Assembly: GCA_965214955.1 (NCBI GenBank)
Contig: CBDCCU010000014.1
Span: forward strand, 16,631-80,630
DNA length: 64,000 nucleotides
Origin: Aliikangiella sp.
GTDB lineage: Bacteria > Pseudomonadota > Gammaproteobacteria > Enterobacterales > Kangiellaceae
Reading direction: 5' to 3'
Position numbers and translations under genes: made by a program. Shown piece after piece: positions 9,205-39,502 of this stretch. How positions within the stretch are numbered: position 1 is the stretch's first letter; each line of letters begins with the position of its first letter. The notes under the pieces were generated by a model, which saw nothing but the letters and a program-made list of their open reading frames with translations, had not been told where the DNA came from and did no database searches.

Positions 9205-9446
9205 ACGTTTCATGTCTTGATTGATGCCAAAACAAAAGTCTATGCGACACAATAAAGCATAAGTGATAAAAGCCTAGGGTTTCATTATCAATTAATTCAG
9301 AGCTTTTGATTGTTATGGTTTGTGCTTAAATCAATTTAAGAGACTCACTATCATGCAAACAAAACCACTCAAACTCAATAAGCGAAAACAAAAAAGCGTT
9401 GAGAGAATGACTATTGTTGTTGTGAGTGATTGTGGATATAGTGGCT
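9205..9446 (-). pseudogene. Decayed 5' end and upstream end of a Y1/HUH transposase element, paralogous to 17750-18012
   Basis: Minus strand reads ..IKSSELIDNETLGFYHL versus MAIRRSELIDNETPGFYHL, then frameshifts. The terminal motif GTGATTGTGGATATAGTGGCTGTCTGG matches 17981-18007. Confidence 0.8.
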
Positions 9447-9476
9447 GTCTGGAATTAGTTTCTCAGGTAACTCTGG

Positions 9477-10770
9477 GAGACCGTTTAGAATTCTGTGTCA
9501 GTGAATGCTAAATATCTAAAACGTCGTCAAGACGACCTTCAAAATAAATAGCCAGTTGCGACAATGTCAAATTCCAATTTTGGATTGGCATTGTCCATTT
9601 CTTCGTCATATTCCCAATGCCAGAATACAATAATTTTAGCAGACTATTTTCATTAGGAAATGCGCCTTTGGTTTTGGTGAGTTTTCTAAACTGGCGGTGC
9701 ACCGATTCAATTGCATTGGTCGTGTAAATAACTTTGCGTATTGGCTCTGGATATTTAAAGAAAACCGACAAGTTATCCCACTTTCTGCGCCAGGATTTGA
9801 GCACAATAGGATATTGTTTGCCCCATTTAGTTTCTAACTCATCGAGCGCTTGCTCAGCCGCTTGTTTGGAAACAGCACGATAAACCGGTTTTAAGTCAGC
9901 CATAAAAGTCTTTTGATTTTTTGAAGCCACATATTTCATCGAGTTGCGAATTTGATGAATAATGCAAAGTTGTACTTCGGTATTAGGATAGCAACTATTA
10001 ATCGCTTCAGGAAAGCCTGTTAGACCATCCACACAGGCAATGAGAATGTCTTGAACACCACGATGGCTCATGTCGGTTAGCACAGATAACCAGAAATTAG
10101 CGCCTTCATTTTCTGATAAGTAAAGCCCTAATATCTCTTTTGTGCCATCAAGTTTTAGTCCGAGAACGGTATAGATGGCCTTGCTAACATAGCGTCCTTG
10201 GTCTTTCACTTTATAATGAATGGCATCGAGCCAAACAAAAGGATAGTGGCTTTCTAATGGCCGTTGTTGCCAGTTTTTAAGCTCAGGAATAAGCTTATCG
10301 GTAATATTGCTGAGTGTTGCAGTGGATATGTTGACACCATACAAATCGGTCAAATTTTGTGTAATATCTCGGTAACTCATACCATGAGAAAAAAGTGAAA
10401 GTATTTTCGTTTCGATTTCATCAGTGAGCGTTGTTTGATGCTTTTTAATGATTTGCGGCTCAAAATTACCTGCGCGATCACGAGGCGTATTGAGTTCAAA
10501 ATTACCATGAGAAGACTTAATTGTTTTGGCTGTAGTGCCATTCTTACGATTCGGTTGCTCATCATCGTCTAAATGAGCAACTAGCTCAGCATTGAGAGCC
10601 GCTTCAGTCAGCTGTTTAATCAATGGAGTAAGCACTCCACCTTTACCGGTTATTGGTTTACCTGACTGTAATTCTTTTAATGCTTTTTCTAAATCAAATG
10701 ATTTATCCATAATGTGTCATTCCTCTTTTTTAAGAGTTTAGTTGAATGACACAGAATTTCTAACACTCCC
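9477..10770 (-). mobile_element. IS256-family insertion sequence, 1294 bp, with 8-bp target duplication AACTCTGG
   Basis: Imperfect 26-bp TIRs (GAGACCGTTTAGAATTCTGTGTCAGT / GGGAGTGTTAGAAATTCTGTGTCATT). AACTCTGG at 9469-9476 and 10771-10778. Confidence 0.95.
9508..10710 (-). CDS. IS256-family (Mutator-type) DDE transposase
   Basis: WLDAI, IACVDGLTGF, VQLCIIHQIRNS and IYTTNAIES motifs; 400 aa, intact. Confidence 0.97.
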   Translation of the reverse strand: MDKSFDLEKALKELQSGKPITGKGGVLTPLIKQLTEAALNAELVAHLDDDEQPNRKNGTTAKTIKSSHGNFELNTPRDRAGNFEPQIIKKHQTTLTDEIETKILSLFSHGMSYRDITQNLTDLYGVNISTATLSNITDKLIPELKNWQQRPLESHYPFVWLDAIHYKVKDQGRYVSKAIYTVLGLKLDGTKEILGLYLSENEGANFWLSVLTDMSHRGVQDILIACVDGLTGFPEAINSCYPNTEVQLCIIHQIRNSMKYVASKNQKTFMADLKPVYRAVSKQAAEQALDELETKWGKQYPIVLKSWRRKWDNLSVFFKYPEPIRKVIYTTNAIESVHRQFRKLTKTKGAFPNENSLLKLLYSGIGNMTKKWTMPIQNWNLTLSQLAIYFEGRLDDVLDI

Positions 10771-11291
10771 AACTCTGGAGCAAGATGTTTTTCAATATAT
10801 CCCTTTCTCTTACACCAATGAATAAGTTCTCGCATGGCCTTTTGTCTATTTCGTAATGTGGTTTCGCCCATGGGACCAAGCTCTATAAAATAATCTTCGA
10901 TTCTATATTCGTTTAAATCCTTAACTGATGTGTTCTTAAAATAGGGAGCGATTTCGTTTTTTAATAAATTGGCATGTCTTATTCTATTCTTTGATGTTCT
11001 TTTTTCCTCAACAAATTCAGCCGCTTCGTAGCATGCTTTAGCTACCGAAGTACTTGCTTTAAATATATTGCTAACGATAAGACTACTTTCTTTTGATGCT
11101 TTATAAGGGATAATAAATTTTTCAATAGCTATGCGTTTAGCTTCCCCTAAATCGGAAGTGCCAAGTGATTTCTGTATATATTTTGCACGTTTACCGTTAT
11201 CAGGGTATGTCTTTAGTTTAATGTAATAGTTTTTTGACCCTGTTTGTTTATAAATATCGCCATATTCTTCAAAACCTTCGATCTTTTCCAT
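10771..11291 (-). pseudogene. Tyrosine integrase N-terminal and core-binding fragment, interrupted by IS256, catalytic domain absent
   Basis: YYIKL...KSLGTSDLGEAKRIA arm-like region and LKNEIAPYF...VKDLNEYRIEDY...TTLRNRQKAMRELIHWC SAM-like region. It lies next to a tRNA-derived att. The ORF-track C-terminus (LGVLEIL...) is read-through into the IS. Confidence 0.75.
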
Positions 11292-11376
11292 ATCCGTTTA
11301 ACCCCCTAATTTAACCATTGCGTTGTTATAGTTTATGTTATAGATGGCTCTAAAGCCAGGAATAATAAAGGGGGTA

Positions 11377-11434
11377 GGGGATTCAAAATCCCCCGCCTTC
11401 GGGTGTGAGAGTTCGAGTCTCTCCCCGGGCACCA
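11377..11434 (+). tRNA. 3' half of tRNA-Leu(CAA), truncated; att-site copy, not a functional tRNA
   Basis: GGGGA-TTCAAAA-TCCCC anticodon arm, CGCC-TTCG-GGTG variable arm, GAGAG-TTCGAGT-CTCTC T-arm, CCCGGGC-A-CCA end. No 5' acceptor strand or D-arm at the right distance. Confidence 0.88.
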
Positions 11435-11471
11435 TAACTTCATGAAAAATAAGAAGAAAATAAAAGTTGCG

Positions 11472-11495
11472 GCCGACCTTAATGTCGGTTTTTTT
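11472..11495 (+). terminator. Intrinsic terminator downstream of the tRNA fragment
   Basis: GCCGAC-CTTAAT-GTCGGT followed by a T-run. Confidence 0.75.
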
Positions 11496-11853
11496 GTGCC
11501 TGAAATTCATAGTCATGAAACTTTTTAGGCTGAATTATGTACAAATCCTTCCTTTTTCATAAGTAATAAACTTCTTCGAAAAACAGCTCCCCGGTCTATA
11601 CCCGGTCCTTTCGTCTGTGTGTATTCTGTGCGCATATGAATCCAAATTTATCCTATGAAATCCAACGTCTAAACCAAGTTGATACTATCTACCTCATCAA
11701 TTGAATATAACCAGAACCTGAGTATATTCTGGGACTCCGGTACATGTCGGTGACGTGTAGGTAATTATACTGTACCAGCCTTGTCTAATGTCTATTTTAA
11801 AGAATTACTAATTTGTGGTAATTTGTGTACAAAAAATTTAACGGGAAAGGTTG

Positions 11854-12276
11854 ATGGATCATAGAGCTGAAGCATGGGAAGAAATAAAAATTTTACAAGA
11901 TATTATTCATAAGCAAGAAGACTTGAGAACAAAGACCAAAAACTGGTGTATAGCTCTTTTCGGGGGATTATCAATAGCCTTTGCTAATTCAAATGGAAAG
12001 CTAGACTTCTTAGCTTATCTACTAGCTAGCATTATTCTTGTTTGTATATTTTGGCTTCTAGAAAATCTGCAACGCTCGATTCAAATGACAACAATTTGCC
12101 ACCGAAACTCCGTCGAAGAAAGTTTGTTAAGCGAACTAGAAAGCTACAAAGGTCCCAAAATTGGCAAAACATTCTCTGCTGGTTATAAATTCTTATCCCC
12201 TTTCAACCTTAGATTAAGTGCTGTCTATCTAGGCTTAATTATAATCGCTCTTTCTCTATCGTTTTTTCAACAATGA
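11854..12276 (+). CDS. Small membrane protein with three hydrophobic segments, first gene of the radical SAM operon
   Basis: ATG after GGAAAGG; hydrophobic segments at about aa 32-47, 53-71 and 122-139; ATGA overlap with the next gene. Confidence 0.75.
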   Translation: MDHRAEAWEEIKILQDIIHKQEDLRTKTKNWCIALFGGLSIAFANSNGKLDFLAYLLASIILVCIFWLLENLQRSIQMTTICHRNSVEESLLSELESYKGPKIGKTFSAGYKFLSPFNLRLSAVYLGLIIIALSLSFFQQ

Positions 12277-13115
12277 GAAATTTACCTAGATATATTGAAT
12301 TTGAGATCGGCTCTTATTGCAACAGACTATGTAGCTGGTGCCCGAATTCTGTAAGTGATAGAGGTCGGCTAAAGAACCACGTATCAGAGAATTTGTGGAA
12401 AAAAGTTATGAAGGAGCTAGGTGAGCTAGACTATAGTGGTTGGATTGCCCTGCATAACTATAACGAGCCTCTTCTAGATCCTTATCTATATGACAGAATA
12501 GCTGATATTCAATGTTATTCCCCAAAATCTCAAGTCGCTATTTATACGAACGGAGATTACTTAGACAAATCTGAGCTAGATAAACTCTGTCAAGTCGAAG
12601 TTAACGAAATTAGAGTTACTCTGTACCCATCAAAAAAAATGGTATCTGACAGCTCTGAATACAGGCTAAATAAATTTATTGCTAAGTTACAGATAGAAAG
12701 AGAGTTTTCTAAAAAGAAACAAACTCACCGGGGAATTGAGGTGGAAACAACTATTTTTAATACGTGCCTAAAAATAATTTCTCCTAAAATCGCAAACTAT
12801 AACAACAGAGCAGGCTCAGTTTTGGATACTAATTTTTTTCGTCATTCCCCTTGTTACCTACCAAATATTTCTGCAGCGATTGATTGGATGGGTAATGTTA
12901 AGCTTTGTTGTCAAGTATATAGCACTTCAAATAATCAAAATAATATACTAGGTAATTTAAATACTTCTAGTTTCGTAGATATTTGGCTTTCAGAGAAGTT
13001 TGCTCGCATTAGAGCCAAAATTAATCGAGGCGATTTCTCCGACACTCCGATTTGCAGGAAGTGTGATCATAAACTGAATTCGGAACAAGGGAAGATAGTG
13101 GTACATAAAGCATGA
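12273..13115 (+). CDS. Radical SAM protein with twitch/SPASM auxiliary Fe-S domain
   Basis: CNRLCSWC (CX3CX2C), NEPLL, TNGDYL; C-terminal PCYLP..DWMGNVKLCCQ..LGNL..SFVDIW..ICRKC. Confidence 0.92.
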   Translation: MRNLPRYIEFEIGSYCNRLCSWCPNSVSDRGRLKNHVSENLWKKVMKELGELDYSGWIALHNYNEPLLDPYLYDRIADIQCYSPKSQVAIYTNGDYLDKSELDKLCQVEVNEIRVTLYPSKKMVSDSSEYRLNKFIAKLQIEREFSKKKQTHRGIEVETTIFNTCLKIISPKIANYNNRAGSVLDTNFFRHSPCYLPNISAAIDWMGNVKLCCQVYSTSNNQNNILGNLNTSSFVDIWLSEKFARIRAKINRGDFSDTPICRKCDHKLNSEQGKIVVHKA

Positions 13116-13636
13116 CTATGTTTGTTCTATTGATAGGAGCTCCAGGCTCTGGTAAATCTACAATATCAAAAGAGCTATCAGAAGTATTGCCTTTTAAATG
13201 CGTAGATATGGAGCCATTTGTACGAGCAGAAAAGCGCAACCCTTTTGATTACAATGAGTTACTATCGGAAACGCAAATAGAAGGTGCGCTAATTAAGCAG
13301 TTAGATGAAGTAAATCGATTACTTTTAAAAGATAAAAATGTGATTGCATTGTTTACATATCATAGGCTTTCTTATGCTATCAGATTATTTAACGTGAAGT
13401 TAGATAAGAAACCCCAAATTTTTTTACTACATGCATCTAGAAAGGATTTGCTTGAAAGAAACTCCTCACGAGATGAAGTAGAACGAGTACCACAGAATTA
13501 TGTCAATAGATGTTATGAAGACCAAAAAACGTATCTAAATAAAAGTTCTTCGGTTGTTCATGTCCTTAATACGAGTCAACTAAATCAAAGACAATGTGTA
13601 AATCAAATAATCAAAATAATAAACCCTTCAAGTTAG
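13112..13636 (+). CDS. P-loop small-molecule/nucleotide kinase (NMP/PNK/gluconate-kinase superfamily)
   Basis: N-terminal GAPGSGKST Walker A, lid-like LLERNSSRDEVERVP, 174 aa; ATGA overlap. Confidence 0.8.
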   Translation: MTMFVLLIGAPGSGKSTISKELSEVLPFKCVDMEPFVRAEKRNPFDYNELLSETQIEGALIKQLDEVNRLLLKDKNVIALFTYHRLSYAIRLFNVKLDKKPQIFLLHASRKDLLERNSSRDEVERVPQNYVNRCYEDQKTYLNKSSSVVHVLNTSQLNQRQCVNQIIKIINPSS

Positions 13637-14907
13637 CTTTATTTGCAAAAGATCGAATTGATAAATATTTTCAAGCTGTACATGGCAAGATAGAAGATCG
13701 TTCTTATGATTCAGCAAAAGTTTTTTTCCATAAAGCGAGGTTTACAGAATTTCTACTAGGTAATGATGAAAAAGTAGTTCCTATCACTTATGAACTCTGG
13801 CCTAGCTTAAGTTGTGATGCTCGATGCGCAAAGTGTACATATAGTGTGAATCGTGCAAGGAAAGAAGCAGATAAGCTTAGCAGCTTAATTTTGGCAGATA
13901 CGAATAAACTAAAGTCACAACTAAATATTTTTAAAGAAGGGGGAGTTAATTCGATAATCATAACAGGGGGAGGCGAGCCTACTCTTCATCCTAATATCTT
14001 GGATATATGCAAATATATTTCAAATCTTGGTATGAAGTGGGGAATGTTTACTCATGGACTTCACATAAATGAAGAGCTTTCAAAGTCACTTTTACAAGCA
14101 TCACCCTCCTTCATAAGAATTTCACTTAATGCAGTAGGAGGTATGGAACATAACAAAGAGTATCGTCTCGGTGATTCAGCATACGAACTCGTAAAAAGAA
14201 ACTTGATTGAACTCGGATTGATGAATTTTAACATTGAGAGTAAAGCATCAATCGCAGCGGGTTTTTCACTTGACCCAATGTCCAATCAAGAACAATTAAA
14301 AAATATAGCAAATGAAATTGCTGATATTTTTTCTAGAAGTGAGGGGAGTGTCTCACGTTTCTCGTTTAGGCCAAAAGTTGTGTATTTTTATGCGGATGGT
14401 AGGCCAAAACATGCACAAAAACACCACAAGAGCTATTTAGATCTCTATGATTCTATTTTGAGTAATATCCAGAACCCACTAAAGGAAAAATTTGGTGACC
14501 AAATAAGAATCGAAAATAAAAAATTTCTATTTGAATCAATTGACGCTGTAAATATTCCAAAAACATGCTTATCTTTAGGCTGGACAGGACAAGTAAATCA
14601 TAATGGTGACGCATATGTTTTAAGCGAACTAAATGGTTCTCCTTGGAGTGAGTCAAGGCTTGGAAGTGTATTGGACTATTCCAATATAAAAGACTTTCTA
14701 GATAGTTCAGAAAGGATGAGTGTATTTGAGAAATACATGAGCGGCGAGCGTAGGTTGCCTGTCAATTCTAAGATTTCACACGTTGAAACTCTATTGTATG
14801 AAGTAAGGAATAGTTTTGGTGTATTTGACAAAAATGAAGTAAATGAGTTTTGGAGGTATTTGCAGATTGAGAATATTGAAAAGCCTTCAAACTGGGATTT
14901 TTTATAG
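13594..14907 (+). CDS. Radical SAM protein with degenerate (Cys-poor) SPASM-like C-terminus
   Basis: ELWPSLSCDARCAKC (CX3CX2C), IIITGGGEPTLHP, MFTHG, IRISL. Start codon uncertain (43-bp overlap). Confidence 0.9.
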   Translation: MCKSNNQNNKPFKLALFAKDRIDKYFQAVHGKIEDRSYDSAKVFFHKARFTEFLLGNDEKVVPITYELWPSLSCDARCAKCTYSVNRARKEADKLSSLILADTNKLKSQLNIFKEGGVNSIIITGGGEPTLHPNILDICKYISNLGMKWGMFTHGLHINEELSKSLLQASPSFIRISLNAVGGMEHNKEYRLGDSAYELVKRNLIELGLMNFNIESKASIAAGFSLDPMSNQEQLKNIANEIADIFSRSEGSVSRFSFRPKVVYFYADGRPKHAQKHHKSYLDLYDSILSNIQNPLKEKFGDQIRIENKKFLFESIDAVNIPKTCLSLGWTGQVNHNGDAYVLSELNGSPWSESRLGSVLDYSNIKDFLDSSERMSVFEKYMSGERRLPVNSKISHVETLLYEVRNSFGVFDKNEVNEFWRYLQIENIEKPSNWDFL

Positions 14908-16013
14908 TGAGGAAAAGAGTATTCATATATGCCGCTCCTTTTGGTTATGGACCGAGTGGTAAAGCTCTAACAATGGCAAAATACCTTTCTTCTGAAAACG
15001 AAGTCACAGTAGGTGTTTTTCAGGATGAGATTGTTGAAAGATACAATTCGGAGGCGGAAGGCTTTAAAGTTTTAAAATTAAATACGAGAGTTCCTAGTGA
15101 AACGATTAAAGCTCTAGGCTTGAATGCATATGATTATTGGATTTCTGTTATGGAGCCTAGGCTTGTCATTTATCTATCTTCAATTGGTCAACACAGCCGC
15201 ACTATATTTATTGATAGTTTAGCGCCATGGAGAGAAAAGCCAATCGATTATATATCCCCAATAAGATTGTATCTAGCGCAATATTTTCCTGGGATATTTA
15301 ACGCGATAAATGAGAATGTAGCCGAGCAAGTTGTTATTACAAAGCCTATTATTAACAATCATGGTCAATGTAAAAAAAATGACAGGCAAAAGGTCGTTTT
15401 GTCGTTCGGTGGAATTCAGTCACCTTATTGTAGCTATGAGACTTTCTCGAAATACATTGTAGATACAATAGATAGTGTAGCCAACGAATGTAATAAATTG
15501 GCTCTTGATGTAGTCGTTTTCGGTCATCAAAAGCTCATTGATGAAAGATTCGATTATAACAATATTCATATTATAGGGTGTGAAAGACAAGACGTATTTT
15601 TAGACTATTTGGCGGAGGCAAAAATATGTATATCAACACCAGGCGTAGAAACCTTTTATGAAGCCACTTCTCGTTCTACACCTATTTTCTTTTTGCCTCC
15701 TACTAATAGTACTCAGTTATTCCAATTAGTAACCTTTATGGAGTATCAGCTTAATTGTTTGATTAGTGAAAACACGTTACTAGAACTAAAAAATGCTTGT
15801 GCATCCATTGATTGGAAGCTACACCCCAAAATAATTGCTAGGATATATGACGCAAAGCAAAAACTGATTGCTTCAGAAATAAGACGAAGTATTAAATCGA
15901 TCATTTGTGATGAAAATACGTTTGTAAAACAGCTTCAACTTCAAAAGAATTTCATTCAACCGGAACTTCCTTGCGGATTGGAATGTATTCAAGAGCTACT
16001 CTGCGAACGATAA
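14907..16013 (+). CDS. GT-B fold glycosyltransferase-like protein (GT28-like C-terminus; possibly related to cytosylglucuronate synthases)
   Basis: N-terminal APFGYGPSGKA loop, LSFGG, ISTPGVETFYEA..TPIFFLP..NSTQ; TAG/GTG overlap. Confidence 0.7.
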   Translation: MRKRVFIYAAPFGYGPSGKALTMAKYLSSENEVTVGVFQDEIVERYNSEAEGFKVLKLNTRVPSETIKALGLNAYDYWISVMEPRLVIYLSSIGQHSRTIFIDSLAPWREKPIDYISPIRLYLAQYFPGIFNAINENVAEQVVITKPIINNHGQCKKNDRQKVVLSFGGIQSPYCSYETFSKYIVDTIDSVANECNKLALDVVVFGHQKLIDERFDYNNIHIIGCERQDVFLDYLAEAKICISTPGVETFYEATSRSTPIFFLPPTNSTQLFQLVTFMEYQLNCLISENTLLELKNACASIDWKLHPKIIARIYDAKQKLIASEIRRSIKSIICDENTFVKQLQLQKNFIQPELPCGLECIQELLCER

Positions 16014-16108
16014 CCAATCATAAACATTAAAAACGCTCTAATCTAACTTCTGAAAATAGGAAAACCTTCATCTAGATACCTCAAATAAAATGATAAGAAC
16101 ATGGAAAC

Positions 16109-16138
16109 AATAGATTGAATATTCACCAATCTATTTTG
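16109..16138 (+). terminator. Possible terminator of the radical SAM operon
   Basis: AATAGATTG / CAATCTATT 9-bp inverted repeat plus a short T-run; AT-rich and weak. Confidence 0.4.
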
Positions 16139-16144
16139 AGGCCT

Positions 16145-16350
16145 CACAATAAATTTAGACAGGCACTTTAAGAAAATGGATTAGTTCAACTTCGCTAGTT
16201 TTTAAATTTGGTCGTTAATTTAATGATTTACGGGCGGCTAAATCGTTGTTTCTGAACGAGTGGTGAGGTTTTTGTGGTCAATTTCTTGAATTTCAAGAAT
16301 ACCAATCCTTTGGAGTTTGCCAAGTCAGTATTTTTTTGATTAGTTTTGAT
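16145..16350. repeat. About 200-bp diverged direct repeat, copy 1 (copy 2 at about 16677-16885)
   Basis: Both copies start with AGACAGGCACTTT and share GGTCAA-TTCTTGAA-N-TTCAAGAA-TACCAA...CCAAGTCAGTATTTTT. Confidence 0.85.
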
Positions 16351-16366
16351 TGTGTGATTATTTAAG

Positions 16367-16459
16367 GACAGTTTCTAGACAGTCACTATACCCACGACAG
16401 TTTCTAGACAGTCACTATACCCACAATCACCCACACAAACAAAAATAGACAGTCATCGA
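16367..16459. repeat. 29-bp tandem duplication plus left inverted end of the Y1 element
   Basis: GACAGTTTCTAGACAGTCACTATACCCAC twice (16367-16395, 16396-16424). 16401-16454 is an imperfect inverted copy of 17960-18010. Confidence 0.88.
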
Positions 16460-16500
16460 AATTACAATATTCATTCAGAGCAAAAGTAACCCAAAAGAGA

Positions 16501-16659
16501 TTATTTTCCCTTAAAGCTAGGTTCACGTTTTTCAATAAATGCCGCTACGCCTTCTCGATAATCATGACTTCTACCTAAATGCTGCATGGCTAAACGTTCT
16601 TTTTCGAGCTGATCATTTAAACTAAAATCAAACGCGTTATGCACTAACAATTTGAATAA
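16501..16659 (-). pseudogene. 3' fragment (about 50 codons) of an enoyl-CoA hydratase/isomerase (PaaG-like crotonase)
   Basis: Manual translation: LLVHNAFDFSLNDQLEKERLAMQHLGRSHDYREGVAAFIEKREPSFKGK*. This is the crotonase C-terminal signature; no start or N-terminus. Confidence 0.85.
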
Positions 16660-16676
16660 AAATAGACAGTCATCGA

Positions 16677-16885
16677 TCTCAATAAAACGAGACAGGCACT
16701 TTTAAAAAAATAATTTTCAATTGAGCTAGGTTTTTACGCTTGGTCATTAATTTAATTATTTGTGAGGGTTAAACTATTGTTTTTGGGTGAGTAGCGAGGC
16801 ATTTTGGGTCAACTTCTTGAACTTCAAGAATACCAATTCCTTGGAGTTCACCAAGTCAGTATTTTTAAGATTTAGTTTGTTTTTT
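16677..16885. repeat. About 200-bp diverged direct repeat, copy 2, immediately 3' of the Y1 transposase gene
   Basis: Aligns by eye with 16145-16350; palindrome TTCTTGAA-C-TTCAAGAA at 16814-16830. Confidence 0.85.
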
Positions 16886-16895
16886 TATTGGTTAG

Positions 16896-17867
16896 TTAAG
16901 GACTAGCATACAACAACTTAGCTGACTTACCCCCTTTAACCCACCGCTGTTTAAGTTTGCTCGCCAAAGCCTGCATGGCTTCAATAGAGCCAACGGCTCG
17001 ATAATAGTTTTGCCGATAAGCTTTCACCTGACTCAGCCATTCATCTTGATTAAGATTAAGCCTTTGGAATATTGGGGTAAGATTGGTTGGAATACTGGCT
17101 TTGTTATCATGAACAATGGTTTTCCCCGTCCATTCCACTAATTCAATATAATCTTTTAGCTTAATGGATAATACCTTTTCTTTAATGCCCCCACTAATCG
17201 ATTCTACTGCTTGGTTTAATTGCGCTTGTGATAAGGACTTAATTCGAGTTTGAATGCTGGTATGCTCAGAATGTTCAAGCTTTTGATTAAGTCCTGCTCT
17301 AATCGGGTTTAAATCCACATAAGCCATACAAGTTAAAGCGGCTGATTCATCCAATAAAGCTTGAGAATGAAACCTAGACTCCCAAAAGTGGCCTTTCACC
17401 CCATCTTCCAAGTTACTGCGTTTAGCTAATGGCTCATTAATACAACTCATTAATCGAGAAATAGAGCCTAGCTTTTGTCTGCAAGCTTCCAGCTTGTCTT
17501 TATCACTTAAAATGGATAACCGTTTGGCTTGGGTTAAAGACTCAGCATTAGGTCGGTTTTTTCTAATCGGATATAACCTCAGCCAACGCTCAACCACTTG
17601 ACTATCAGACCATTGCCATGGAGCTTTGGGATTAAAATAAACCACTAGATGATAATGATTATGCATCACCGCATAGCTATAGACTTCAATGGCAAATAAC
17701 TCAGCTAAAAACAATATTCGTTTTTCAATCCATGCTCTTCTGTGCTCATAGGAAACTCCCGTTTCTTCATCCACGCCACACAAAAAAGCCCGTCTGACAC
17801 AACGAGACGATAAATGATAAAAGCCCGGGGTTTCGTTATCAATTAATTCAGAGCGTCTAATTGCCAT
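16896..17867 (-). CDS. Y1 HUH transposase (REP-associated / IS200-IS605 TnpA-like, long form)
   Basis: YHLSSRCVRRAFLCG, YAVMHNHYHLVV (HUH), FWESRF, YVDLNPIRAG (catalytic Tyr), DYIELVEWTG. Confidence 0.9.
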   Translation of the reverse strand: MAIRRSELIDNETPGFYHLSSRCVRRAFLCGVDEETGVSYEHRRAWIEKRILFLAELFAIEVYSYAVMHNHYHLVVYFNPKAPWQWSDSQVVERWLRLYPIRKNRPNAESLTQAKRLSILSDKDKLEACRQKLGSISRLMSCINEPLAKRSNLEDGVKGHFWESRFHSQALLDESAALTCMAYVDLNPIRAGLNQKLEHSEHTSIQTRIKSLSQAQLNQAVESISGGIKEKVLSIKLKDYIELVEWTGKTIVHDNKASIPTNLTPIFQRLNLNQDEWLSQVKAYRQNYYRAVGSIEAMQALASKLKQRWVKGGKSAKLLYASP

Positions 17868-18164
17868 GGTGGTTTGTCCTTAAACCGAGTAGTAGAGAGA
17901 TTAATCATGCTAGAACGCGCAAACAAACACAATCAGCTTATTCAGTAATTGTTGTGGGAGATTGTCTATTGTTGGTGTGGGTGATTGTGGGTATGGTGAG
18001 TGTCTGGAGATTTTAGTGCTAATTAAACCAAAGAGCGCATAGACAACTATCAAGAATAAAAAACTATTGTTGAGATTAATGTGAATTGAGTGGTATTGTT
18101 TCTTAACTTGGATGTTCCTATCATTCCCATAATTAAGAGTACATTAATGGAGAACTCTTTATAA

Positions 18165-38818: not shown

Positions 38819-38845
38819 TAATCATTACAGCAACCGAAAAATATT

Positions 38846-39109
38846 ATACCCGTTTTCCTTCAAGATGCTTGTTACAGTGTTCAGCCAAAAAGTTTGAACA
38901 AGGCGTAGCTTGCAGGAAATGGCAAGCCCTTTTCAAAAGCTGTAACACAGTGCAAGCTTTTTGGCTGAGCACCCGAAGGGCAAGACAGTAAGCCAACCTC
39001 TTTTTCGTTATCAATGCTTGAATTAGAATGACTAATCCTGCGCACTGATGCCTCAAATAGGATGGCTTGCTGTCTTGCTGAAACATGCATCTTGAAGGAG
39101 AACGGGTAT
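38846..39109. mobile_element. MITE-like structured element (264 bp)
   Basis: 28-bp TIR ATACCCGTT(T/C)TCCTTCAAGATGC(T/A)TGTT, TA-flanked, with two internal long inverted repeats. Confidence 0.8.
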
Positions 39110-39502
39110 ATATCTTCGGTTGCTTTATATAATACTCAACAACTATCAAAAGCATCATTCAGCAAATTGTGATCTCAAATAGAAATAGAGCAGATAGACA
39201 GACAAAAGCCATTATTTGCATGTATTTGCATCTCTTGTGCCAATAGTTTTAATAGTACAAACTTATTGATCTTGGTCAAAAAATCCACAAAACCCTGTTG
39301 GTATGTATCTAGTTTTTTATCATAATTGGTAAAAGCAAAAGATTGTGATTATTCGCAAAAAATTAAAAGCGTATTCACAAGCTTTAGTTTATATCCATTC
39401 TTCTTCAAAAATCATAACAAGCATTTTGAGGAAGAGGGGTTATATTAATTTAAAAATTCTAGTTATTTGAGTAATAGTTACTTAATTAAGGAGTGTTATA
39501 AA

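Follow-up and report, generated by a model that had tools for sequence, protein, structure and literature searches.

The locus analyzed here lies in a 64-kb stretch of DNA, to which we refer as the window. It contains an intact transposase gene (tnpA) with its 5′ untranslated region and 5′ inverted repeat, the 3′ module that follows this gene, a diverged second copy of that module, and the tail of a crotonase gene that sits between two copies of a short motif (Table 1). The first-pass annotation had read tnpA as a gene for a Y1/HUH transposase, and its translation bears this out. The protein contains the sequences AVMHNHYHLVV (NHYH), GHFWESRF (WE), and MAYVDLNPIRAG (YVDLNP), and these three signatures assign it to TnpA_Y1 subclass 2.3. 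In the survey by Quentin, Siguier, Chandler and Fichant (2018), members of this subclass are characterized by the HuH motif NHYH, the W motif WE, and the Y motif YVDLNP, by a median length of ~325 aa with core insertions and a long C-terminal tail, and by the occurrence of several diverged copies per genome in Chromatiales and Alteromonadales; no REP-like DNA was recognizable around these genes, and the ends of the elements were left undescribed (PMC6006769). With 323 aa the protein encoded at this locus has the expected length, and it aligns with its relatives over residues 1-322. Matches to general profiles are weak (Pfam Y1_Tnp: 19.7 bits, below the cut-off of 23; NCBIfam REP_Tyr_transpos: 37 bits versus a cut-off of 80). 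A PDB sequence search with the transposase gave no match, and exact look-ups of the transposase and of both flanking proteins in the contig collection returned nothing.

Table 1. Features of the locus, numbered from the first nucleotide of the window
Feature	Position	Strand	Basis or remark
Outer end of the older module B1: small palindrome AATAGATTG..CAATCTATT	16105-16143	-	AATAGA-type end motif
B1, diverged second copy of the 3′ module	16144-16369	-	78-84% identical to B2
Perfect 29-bp tandem duplication (GACAGTTTCTAGACAGTCACTATACCCAC, twice)	16367-16424	+	Repeat comparison
Distal inverted repeat (TIR-L), inverted copy of the 5′ end of the element	16375-16442	+	Pairing arms
Intact element	~16375-18008	-	Inverted-repeat-bounded unit
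Left 22-nt terminal motif	16438-16459	+	19-mer 16441-16459; core GACAGTCA 16448-16455
Non-element DNA (41 bp), presumed native 3′ flank of the crotonase gene	16460-16500	-	Unlike family copies
PaaG-like enoyl-CoA hydratase/isomerase relic	16501-16654	-	Profile matches; stop codon retained
Right 22-nt terminal motif	16655-16676	-	19-mer 16658-16676; core 16665-16672
B2, 3′ module of the intact element	16677-16895	-	Inner motif GACAGGCA 16691-16698; palindrome TTCTTGAAcTTCAAGAA
tnpA, intact 323-aa Y1 (HUH) transposase, TnpA_Y1 subclass 2.3	16896-17867	-	Signature motifs
5′ untranslated region and 5′ terminal inverted repeat (17955-18008)	17868-18008	-	Comparison with relatives and with the remnant at 9220-9460
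Short dispersed repeat, degenerate and inverted-repeat-like, outside the putative cargo	18019-18115	.	Depth

The closest relatives of the transposase (57-65% amino acid identity) are encoded by multi-copy elements in Aliikangiella marina and in Kangiellaceae MAGs. A. marina holds at least nine such loci, which are 57-65% identical to the query (best: 65%) and share 68-97% DNA identity among themselves. Sequencing depth in run X1 ranges from 36 to 149 over tnpA as compared to ~4-7 over the flanks, showing that this gene too is multi-copy. A further family copy (L026; 56% amino acid identity, 53-nt inverted repeats) occurs on a contig labeled as a Polaribacter sp. MAG (Bacteroidota), as the result of either horizontal transfer or a binning error.

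We compared ~23 close copies of the subclass-2.3 element among these relatives and mapped the ends from near-identical copies with different flanks. In almost all 23 copies a forward motif GACAG[TGC]CA is found at -127 to -134 before the ATG, and an inverted motif TG[ACG]CTGTC is found at +172 to +213 after the stop codon. Similarity between copies stops 9-10 nt beyond these motifs, and comparison of L001 with L004 and of L002 with L003 places the termini ~137 nt upstream of the ATG and ~214 nt downstream of the stop codon. The 3′ terminus of the relatives contains an inverted partner of the 5′ end that is 12-53 nt long. The 3′ (B) module, as we call the ~200 bp that separate the stop codon from the 3′ motif, is unstable. 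It is present in two to three tandem copies in L003, L009 (three copies), L016, and L030, and as partial repeats in L001 and L020. Each repeated module ends in TG[ACG]CTGTC, often having started a few nucleotides from the stop codon. The pair L009 and L011 shares 98% identity to a point ~24 nt beyond the stop codon, with a 3′ module that has diverged far more than the transposase gene. Since module arrays differ between copies with 97-98% identical transposase genes, we conclude that these arrays arise locally and are not inherited through transposition. The first-pass annotation had envisaged variable passenger fragments in other copies of the element. The survey of ~23 close relatives speaks against this idea: none carries an identifiable gene fragment between end motifs, and their own 3′ modules are duplicated instead. 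In L015 the motifs enclose 194 bp of non-module DNA, and the second of these motifs may be a chance 8-mer.

Tandem arrangements of whole genes occur as well. L010, L015, and L017 each contain two family transposase genes at a distance of 1.2-1.7 kb. The second copy in L010 has no normal 5′ end and begins ~50 nt after the 3′ motif of the first copy. This position suggests insertion or recombination at resident ends.

The element in the window follows the family layout at its 5′ end, where other copies in runs X1 and X3 diverge from it at 18008, and in its first module, B2, with the inner motif at +198 after the stop codon (relatives: +172 to +213). Read along the transposase strand, the locus consists of the 5′ repeat (18008-17955), the untranslated region, tnpA, B2, a 22-mer, the crotonase relic with its flank, a second 22-mer, an inverted copy of the 5′ repeat that extends to 16375 with its outer 29 bp duplicated, a transposase stop codon fused to B1, and a palindrome. 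The distal repeat pairs with the 5′ repeat through 50-nt arms (16393-16442 and 17969-18018) that are 84% complementary. The 29-bp duplication spans the outer end of the inverted repeat and 8 nt beyond, and similar terminal duplications are present in L001 and L020. Module B1 is spaced 531-534 bp from B2. It contains its own copy of the inner motif (GACAGGCA, 16158-16165) and, of a transposase gene, only the final codons with their stop (TTAAGGAC, 16362-16369), and it ends without a long inverted repeat. A contig from run X3 joins 16361 directly to 16896, which shows that a sibling element exists with a B1-type module after an intact transposase gene. B1 is therefore either what remains of another copy or an additional module in the stack. 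Both B1 (16283-16299) and B2 (16814-16830) retain a perfect 8+1+8 palindrome, TTCTTGAAnTTCAAGAA, which could be a protein-binding site or form a hairpin.

The relic is flanked by what had been described as two identical 19-bp motifs, and we could confirm this description at both coordinates. The 19-mer AAAAATAGACAGTCATCGA occurs exactly twice in the window, both times on the + strand, and a search of the entire 64 kb with up to three mismatches produced no further match. The chance expectation for this 19-mer is 0.01, and two or more matches were found in 0 of 100 shuffled sequences. The true repeat (TCGATGACTGTCTATTTTTATT in the right copy, read on the transposase strand) is 22 nt long with one mismatch, so that the two copies agree in 19 of 19 positions over the shorter and 21 of 22 over the longer unit. 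These 22-mers are direct repeats of each other. The left copy abuts the crotonase flank with its inner edge (..TCGA) and runs on its outer side into the inverted version of the 5′ repeat; it is the same TCGA edge at which the right copy borders on B2. Two IS ends that had inserted independently and faced outward would not be expected to show such a geometry. Seen from the left 22-mer, the relic takes the place of a module. On the transposase strand (16676-16655) the right 22-mer reads TGACTGTC TATTTTTATT. Since this sequence consists of a TG[ACG]CTGTC motif followed by ~10 T/A-rich nucleotides, as in L010, L016, and L003, the right copy corresponds in form to the 3′ terminus of the family, and the right 19-mer is the canonical proximal 3′ terminus of the intact element.

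Sequencing depth suggests that the two motif copies share one origin. In run X1 the depth is ~165 at the adjacent inverted-repeat core and 5.9 from 16448 onward, hence this version of the left motif is unique to the locus. The right 22-mer is likewise single-copy in this run. Other element copies in X1 share the inverted repeat from 16401 to 16442 and then diverge, continuing with TAGACAATCTC. Since the two 22-mers are nearly identical to each other and both unique to the locus, they point to one local event and not to independent insertions. An independent public assembly of run X1 (Logan) contains a contig that is identical to 16407-16908, and we can therefore eliminate the possibility that the arrangement results from misassembly of the window. 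When JGI metagenome contigs were scanned for exact copies of the 19-mer, only four unrelated chance matches were returned. A chance metagenomic match to the 19-mer in L089 (519-563) lies inside the near-palindrome AAAAATAGACAG..GCTGTCTATTTTT in an unrelated context of high GC content and is probably a coincidence.

The DNA between the motif copies amounts to 195 bp, made up of a crotonase tail and 41 bp of 3′ flank. This composition agrees with the C-terminal fragment plus about 40 bp of downstream DNA that the first-pass annotation had recognized. The minus-strand reading between the motif copies ends in ..LVHNAFDFSLNDQLEKERLAMQHLGRSHDYREGVAAFIEKREPSFKGK (also written ..GRSHDYREGVAAFIEKREPSFKGK) and a stop codon. 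This stop codon (16501-16503) and the last ~50 codons are retained, which corresponds to about 20% of the protein, and the catalytic part is absent. The translation matches positions 204-251 of 251 in Pfam ECH_1 (E 9e-5) and positions 207-256 of 256 in NCBIfam PaaG (TIGR02280, E 2e-12). In crotonases, which have a fold of ~255 aa, the residues of the oxyanion hole and of catalysis lie within the first two thirds from the N-terminus. Covering model positions ~204-256 only, the relic falls far short of the complete fold of a functional crotonase or PaaG. The fragment was said to be missing from the list of open reading frames, which in fact includes it as a 49-aa ORF with a TTG start (16501..16650, minus strand). 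The 41-bp flank showed similarity no better than that of shuffled sequence to all parts of the 23 family copies. For this reason we rejected the idea that the 41 bp after the left 19-mer represent a 5′ untranslated region of the element.

As noted in the first reading of this DNA, no parent gene is present in the window, and indeed no other crotonase or paa sequence occurs anywhere in its 64 kb. The closest crotonase homologue in the sample is located on a 3709-bp contig of run X1 (depth 2.9) that matches 16501-16647 at 86% identity. Similarity to this full-length homologue begins at the stop codon and fades at ~16650-16655, where the right 22-mer begins. Ten of the 11 listed differences fall on third codon positions, which shows that the relic derives from a gene that evolved under purifying selection. 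This pattern, together with the 86% identity, also identifies the homologue as an orthologue or paralogue rather than the donor. The full paaG-like parent gene was thus not found in the window or in the samples searched. A protein search with the 50-aa crotonase tail returned one 56-aa fragment (65% identity), which was of no further help. The foreign DNA is the dead relic of a gene that was once under purifying selection.

Is this relic inside or outside of the element? The 5′ repeat forms a duplex with 16370-16462 at a calculated -39.3 kcal/mol (shuffled sequences: mean -14, minimum -21.7). Pairing with the proximal 3′ end yields -9.4 kcal/mol, which is weaker than that of shuffled controls. 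The only good inverted-repeat partner of the element therefore lies beyond the relic, which places the relic inside the repeat-bounded unit. Deletion of the 217 bp would put this partner at +225 to +276, near its place in the relatives. By the measure of the inverted repeats, the earlier view that the fragment resides within the element holds. The proximal end by itself (inner motif, 26 nt, outer motif, 10 nt) is also a complete canonical 3′ terminus, comparable to that of A. marina L003, so that the relic can equally be read as flanking DNA outside the element. We therefore describe the relic as structural cargo of the repeat-bounded unit with moderate confidence only. This cargo would travel with the element if the distal end were used in transposition. 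We examined runs X1-X3 for a second copy of the composite (motif-relic-motif) or for a variant without the 217 bp. The locus is absent from run X3. In the runs that hold it, the composite is single-copy (relic depth of 5.9 in X1), and they contain no second insertion, relic-free variant, empty site, or circle junction of the composite.

The region between 9 and 18 kb of the window is a low-GC patchwork with an IS256-family transposase, a truncated integrase, and a Y1 element remnant. This remnant (9220-9460, minus strand), a dead member of the same family as the intact Y1 element, lies just downstream of ssb. It has preserved the 5′ inverted repeat, the untranslated region, and the first ~15 codons with a start codon mutated to ATA. 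Adjoining it are a transposase gene of the IS256/Mutator family (9508-10710) and a truncated ORF that resembles an integrase gene (10689-11291). From ~9500 to 16013, between ssb and the Y1 element, extends an island of low GC content (0.32-0.36) that encodes an 8xMP-like membrane protein, a radical-SAM/SPASM protein, a P-loop kinase, another radical-SAM protein, and an orphan of 368 aa. This orphan has homologues at 27-28% identity only, which lie next to a carbamoyltransferase in one contig.

Next to the element, the dispersed repeat at 18019-18115 has its core at 18059-18101 and reaches a depth of 58 in run X1, compared to 3.9 in the flank; the flanks of its other copies are unrelated. It resembles a degenerate version of the element's inverted repeat (CTATTGTTG..GTGAATTGAGTGGTAT), occurs in tandem in run X2, and is joined to a 5′ inverted repeat in a different arrangement in run X3. 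This sequence may represent a solo-repeat family that is derived from, or targeted by, the Y1 element. We also considered whether the composite had split a 5′ end, with 18009-18164 as its second part. This idea was rejected since the segment holds this different short dispersed repeat; its only match to the untranslated region of the element remnant is 16 nt long. Farther away, an intergenic pair of 33-nt inverted repeats (38845-38877 and 39078-39110; 91% complementary, 200 nt apart) may be a small MITE-like element.

How could a gene tail have arrived between two copies of an end motif? To the reading that motif-directed joining placed host DNA in the variable 3′ module stack of the element we assign an even chance. 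Elements of this family carry a forward GACAGTCA-type motif at the 5′ end and, at the 3′ end, at least one inverted copy (TGACTGTC plus ~10 nt) that closes the ~200-bp 3′ module. The 3′ region changes fast by duplication, exchange, and stacking of modules. At the present locus, the stack consists of, going outward from the transposase, B2, a 22-mer, 195 bp of foreign DNA, another 22-mer, the inverted 5′ repeat, and the older B1. The two motif copies would be sisters produced by one local event that used the motif as a joint. The most likely agent of this event would be the element's own Y1 transposase, cleaving and rejoining a strand at its end motif. That the transposase may act at the 19-mer is suggested by joints that lie at the motif edges and by the conservation of the motif at element ends. 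We could derive no single-step Y1 pathway to the order motif, foreign DNA, motif, unless the foreign DNA already adjoined a motif; the history of the locus therefore probably comprises more than one step.

Two claims of the first-pass annotation bear on this proposal. The suggestion that the motif marks the site of joining is in accord with its conservation as a family end motif and with both crotonase joints, which coincide exactly with motif edges. The broader claim that the locus is a snapshot of host DNA capture stands in part: the joints at the motif edges and the position of the relic inside the inverted repeats agree with it, while the single-copy composite, the missing donor, and the relatives without fragments do not.

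A rival history, which we consider possible though rather unlikely, is that the relic is still in place. A crotonase gene resident at this site would have been interrupted by the element near codon 205. To the left, the inverted-repeat unit and B1 would be debris of other copies or a dispersed repeat in the 3′ intergenic region of the gene, and the 5′ four-fifths of the gene would have been lost later by IS-mediated rearrangement. The likeness of the two 19-mers would merely reflect their common nature as family end motifs, or conversion of one by the other. The junction between element and crotonase has the form of a normal junction between 3′ terminus and flank, and an A/T-rich stretch is present at the equivalent place of the homologous gene. 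The single-copy composite also agrees with this history, as does the mobile-element debris that fills the region, including the 9220-9460 remnant, the IS256-family transposase, the truncated integrase, and the low-GC island. Furthermore, inverted-repeat cores far outnumber transposase bodies in the sample, which indicates that solo repeat units exist. The pair of 22-mers speaks against an insertion in place. They are direct repeats, and it is the inner edge of the left copy that is turned toward the relic, not an outward-facing terminus as expected from two independent insertions. Their identity (19/19, or 21/22) is unexpected given that other 5′ ends differ clearly at this point and that both versions are unique to the locus. 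Ordinary gene conversion is a poor explanation for this identity because the normal 5′ inner motif is too dissimilar to the 22-mer. A random deletion would have had to end exactly on a motif edge. Finally, the right flank contains no missing part of the gene or of element Ea: tested as the missing transposase C-terminus of Ea or as the crotonase head, it encodes neither.

Comparison of gene order had little to offer on the former location of the crotonase gene, as none of the collections searched contains a relative with conserved synteny. The nearest homologues of the MASE1-GGDEF gene (64% and 53% identity) have entirely different neighbors and no crotonase, and the same is true for the distant homologues (27-28%) of the 368-aa gene.

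Another scenario is true 3′ transduction, which we regard as distinctly improbable. In this case an element inserted in a crotonase gene elsewhere would have bypassed its proximal end and moved together with the gene tail as one unit, using a second end motif downstream in the manner of IS91/ISCR elements and Helitrons. The position of the relic between a proximal and a distal end, of which the distal one is the better partner of the 5′ repeat, is consistent with such a move. So is the fact that the window contains no other crotonase or paa genes and that the nearest available homologues of the flanking genes have no crotonase neighbor. However, the composite is single-copy in all runs that hold the locus, and the split-target test failed, as the sequence to the left of the composite does not find its second half in the right flank. 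In addition, near-identical copies among the relatives do not inherit one another's arrays. Bypass of an end is a documented behavior of Y2/rolling-circle HUH elements but is not known from Y1 enzymes. As to a chance repeat or an assembly artefact, the expectation of 0.01, the 0 of 100 shuffles, and the exact Logan contig (16407-16908) leave these explanations with a negligible probability.

Motif-directed joining into the 3′ module stack, the reading that we favor, leads to a more general conjecture. Transposases of subclass 2.3 might handle as a cassette whatever DNA is enclosed by two direct copies of their end motif, cutting and rejoining it at the motif and so building the stacks of 3′ modules found in the family. 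We think this generalization unlikely to hold. If it does, host DNA would occasionally be taken in, and the process would amount to integron-like shuffling by a HUH enzyme. The question matters because Y1 transposases of subclass 2.3 are common and multi-copy in marine gammaproteobacteria. The locus and its ~23 relatives provide a concrete end motif, approximate termini, and a fast-changing stack of 3′ modules, and the relic between sister motif copies points to a specific candidate site at which DNA may be cleaved and joined. Joining by the enzyme at this motif would enable the family to rearrange or acquire short segments of host DNA. Should the enzyme lack this activity, the crotonase tail is a common gene remnant among clustered insertion sequences.

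Several known systems offer points of comparison. In IS91/ISCR/IS1294 and in Helitrons, which are HUH elements capable of one-ended or read-through transposition, a missed 3′ end causes adjacent host DNA to be carried along up to the next end-like site; this would produce the order of element, host fragment, and second end found at this locus. These elements use Y2 rolling-circle, Rep-like enzymes and ori/ter ends, and their captured segments occur in several copies and lengths. The locus resembles them in that a host fragment lies between a proximal 22-mer (16655-16676) and a second 22-mer with a distal repeat (16375-16459). It differs in that there is a single composite copy and no split target, and in that the transposase has one catalytic tyrosine motif (Y1 class) instead of two.

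Elements of the IS200/IS605 family (IS608, ISDra2; TnpA_Y1 subclass 1.1) encode enzymes of ~150 aa with a Y...Q motif and end in subterminal hairpins of the same orientation. They transpose as single strands by "peel and paste", without inverted repeats or a 3′ module, and DNA between the left and the right end is movable in principle. Capture of flanking DNA by end bypass is, to our knowledge, not a documented property of this family. Common features are the Y1 HUH enzyme and the recognition of ends as sequence-specific sites; the protein described here is larger (323 aa), contains a Y...NP motif, and belongs to an element with inverted repeats as ends.

RAYTs are typically single-copy, domesticated, and vertically inherited, and the associated REPs are palindromes of 20-40 nt. 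The locus shares with REPtrons (REP, BIME, REPIN) a Y1 gene amid clusters of short repeats with a presumed recognition motif, and repeats that often lie just downstream of stop codons. Unlike in REPtrons, the gene is multi-copy and the repeats consist of ~55-nt inverted-repeat units and ~200-bp modules.

The likeness to TnpA_Y1 subclass 2.3 extends from the length of ~325 aa and the NHYH/WE/YVDLNP motifs to the several diverged copies in marine gammaproteobacteria. Relative to the survey of this subclass, the present comparison defines ends, in the form of the inverted GACAGTCA/TGACTGTC motif, a ~200-bp 3′ module, and stacks of such modules, and it includes one copy that carries foreign DNA (PMC6006769). 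In overall architecture the element is similar to TIRtrons (TIRYTs), in which a RAYT-like tyrosine transposase gene is flanked by terminal inverted repeats, the units of which are also dispersed as dimers or clusters and are not REP hairpins (Di Nocera et al. 2013, PMC3733652). The majority inverted-repeat motif of TIRYTs is GGGGWSAS, and most of them belong to subclass 2.1 and are low-copy (PMC3733652). The element at this locus likewise has a tyrosine transposase gene between inverted repeats (50-nt arms, 84% complementary), but its motif is GACAG[TGC]CA instead of GGGGWSAS, and its family is multi-copy and insertion-sequence-like. The locus is thus a variant within known kinds, namely TIRtron-like Y1 elements and IS-associated gene remnants.
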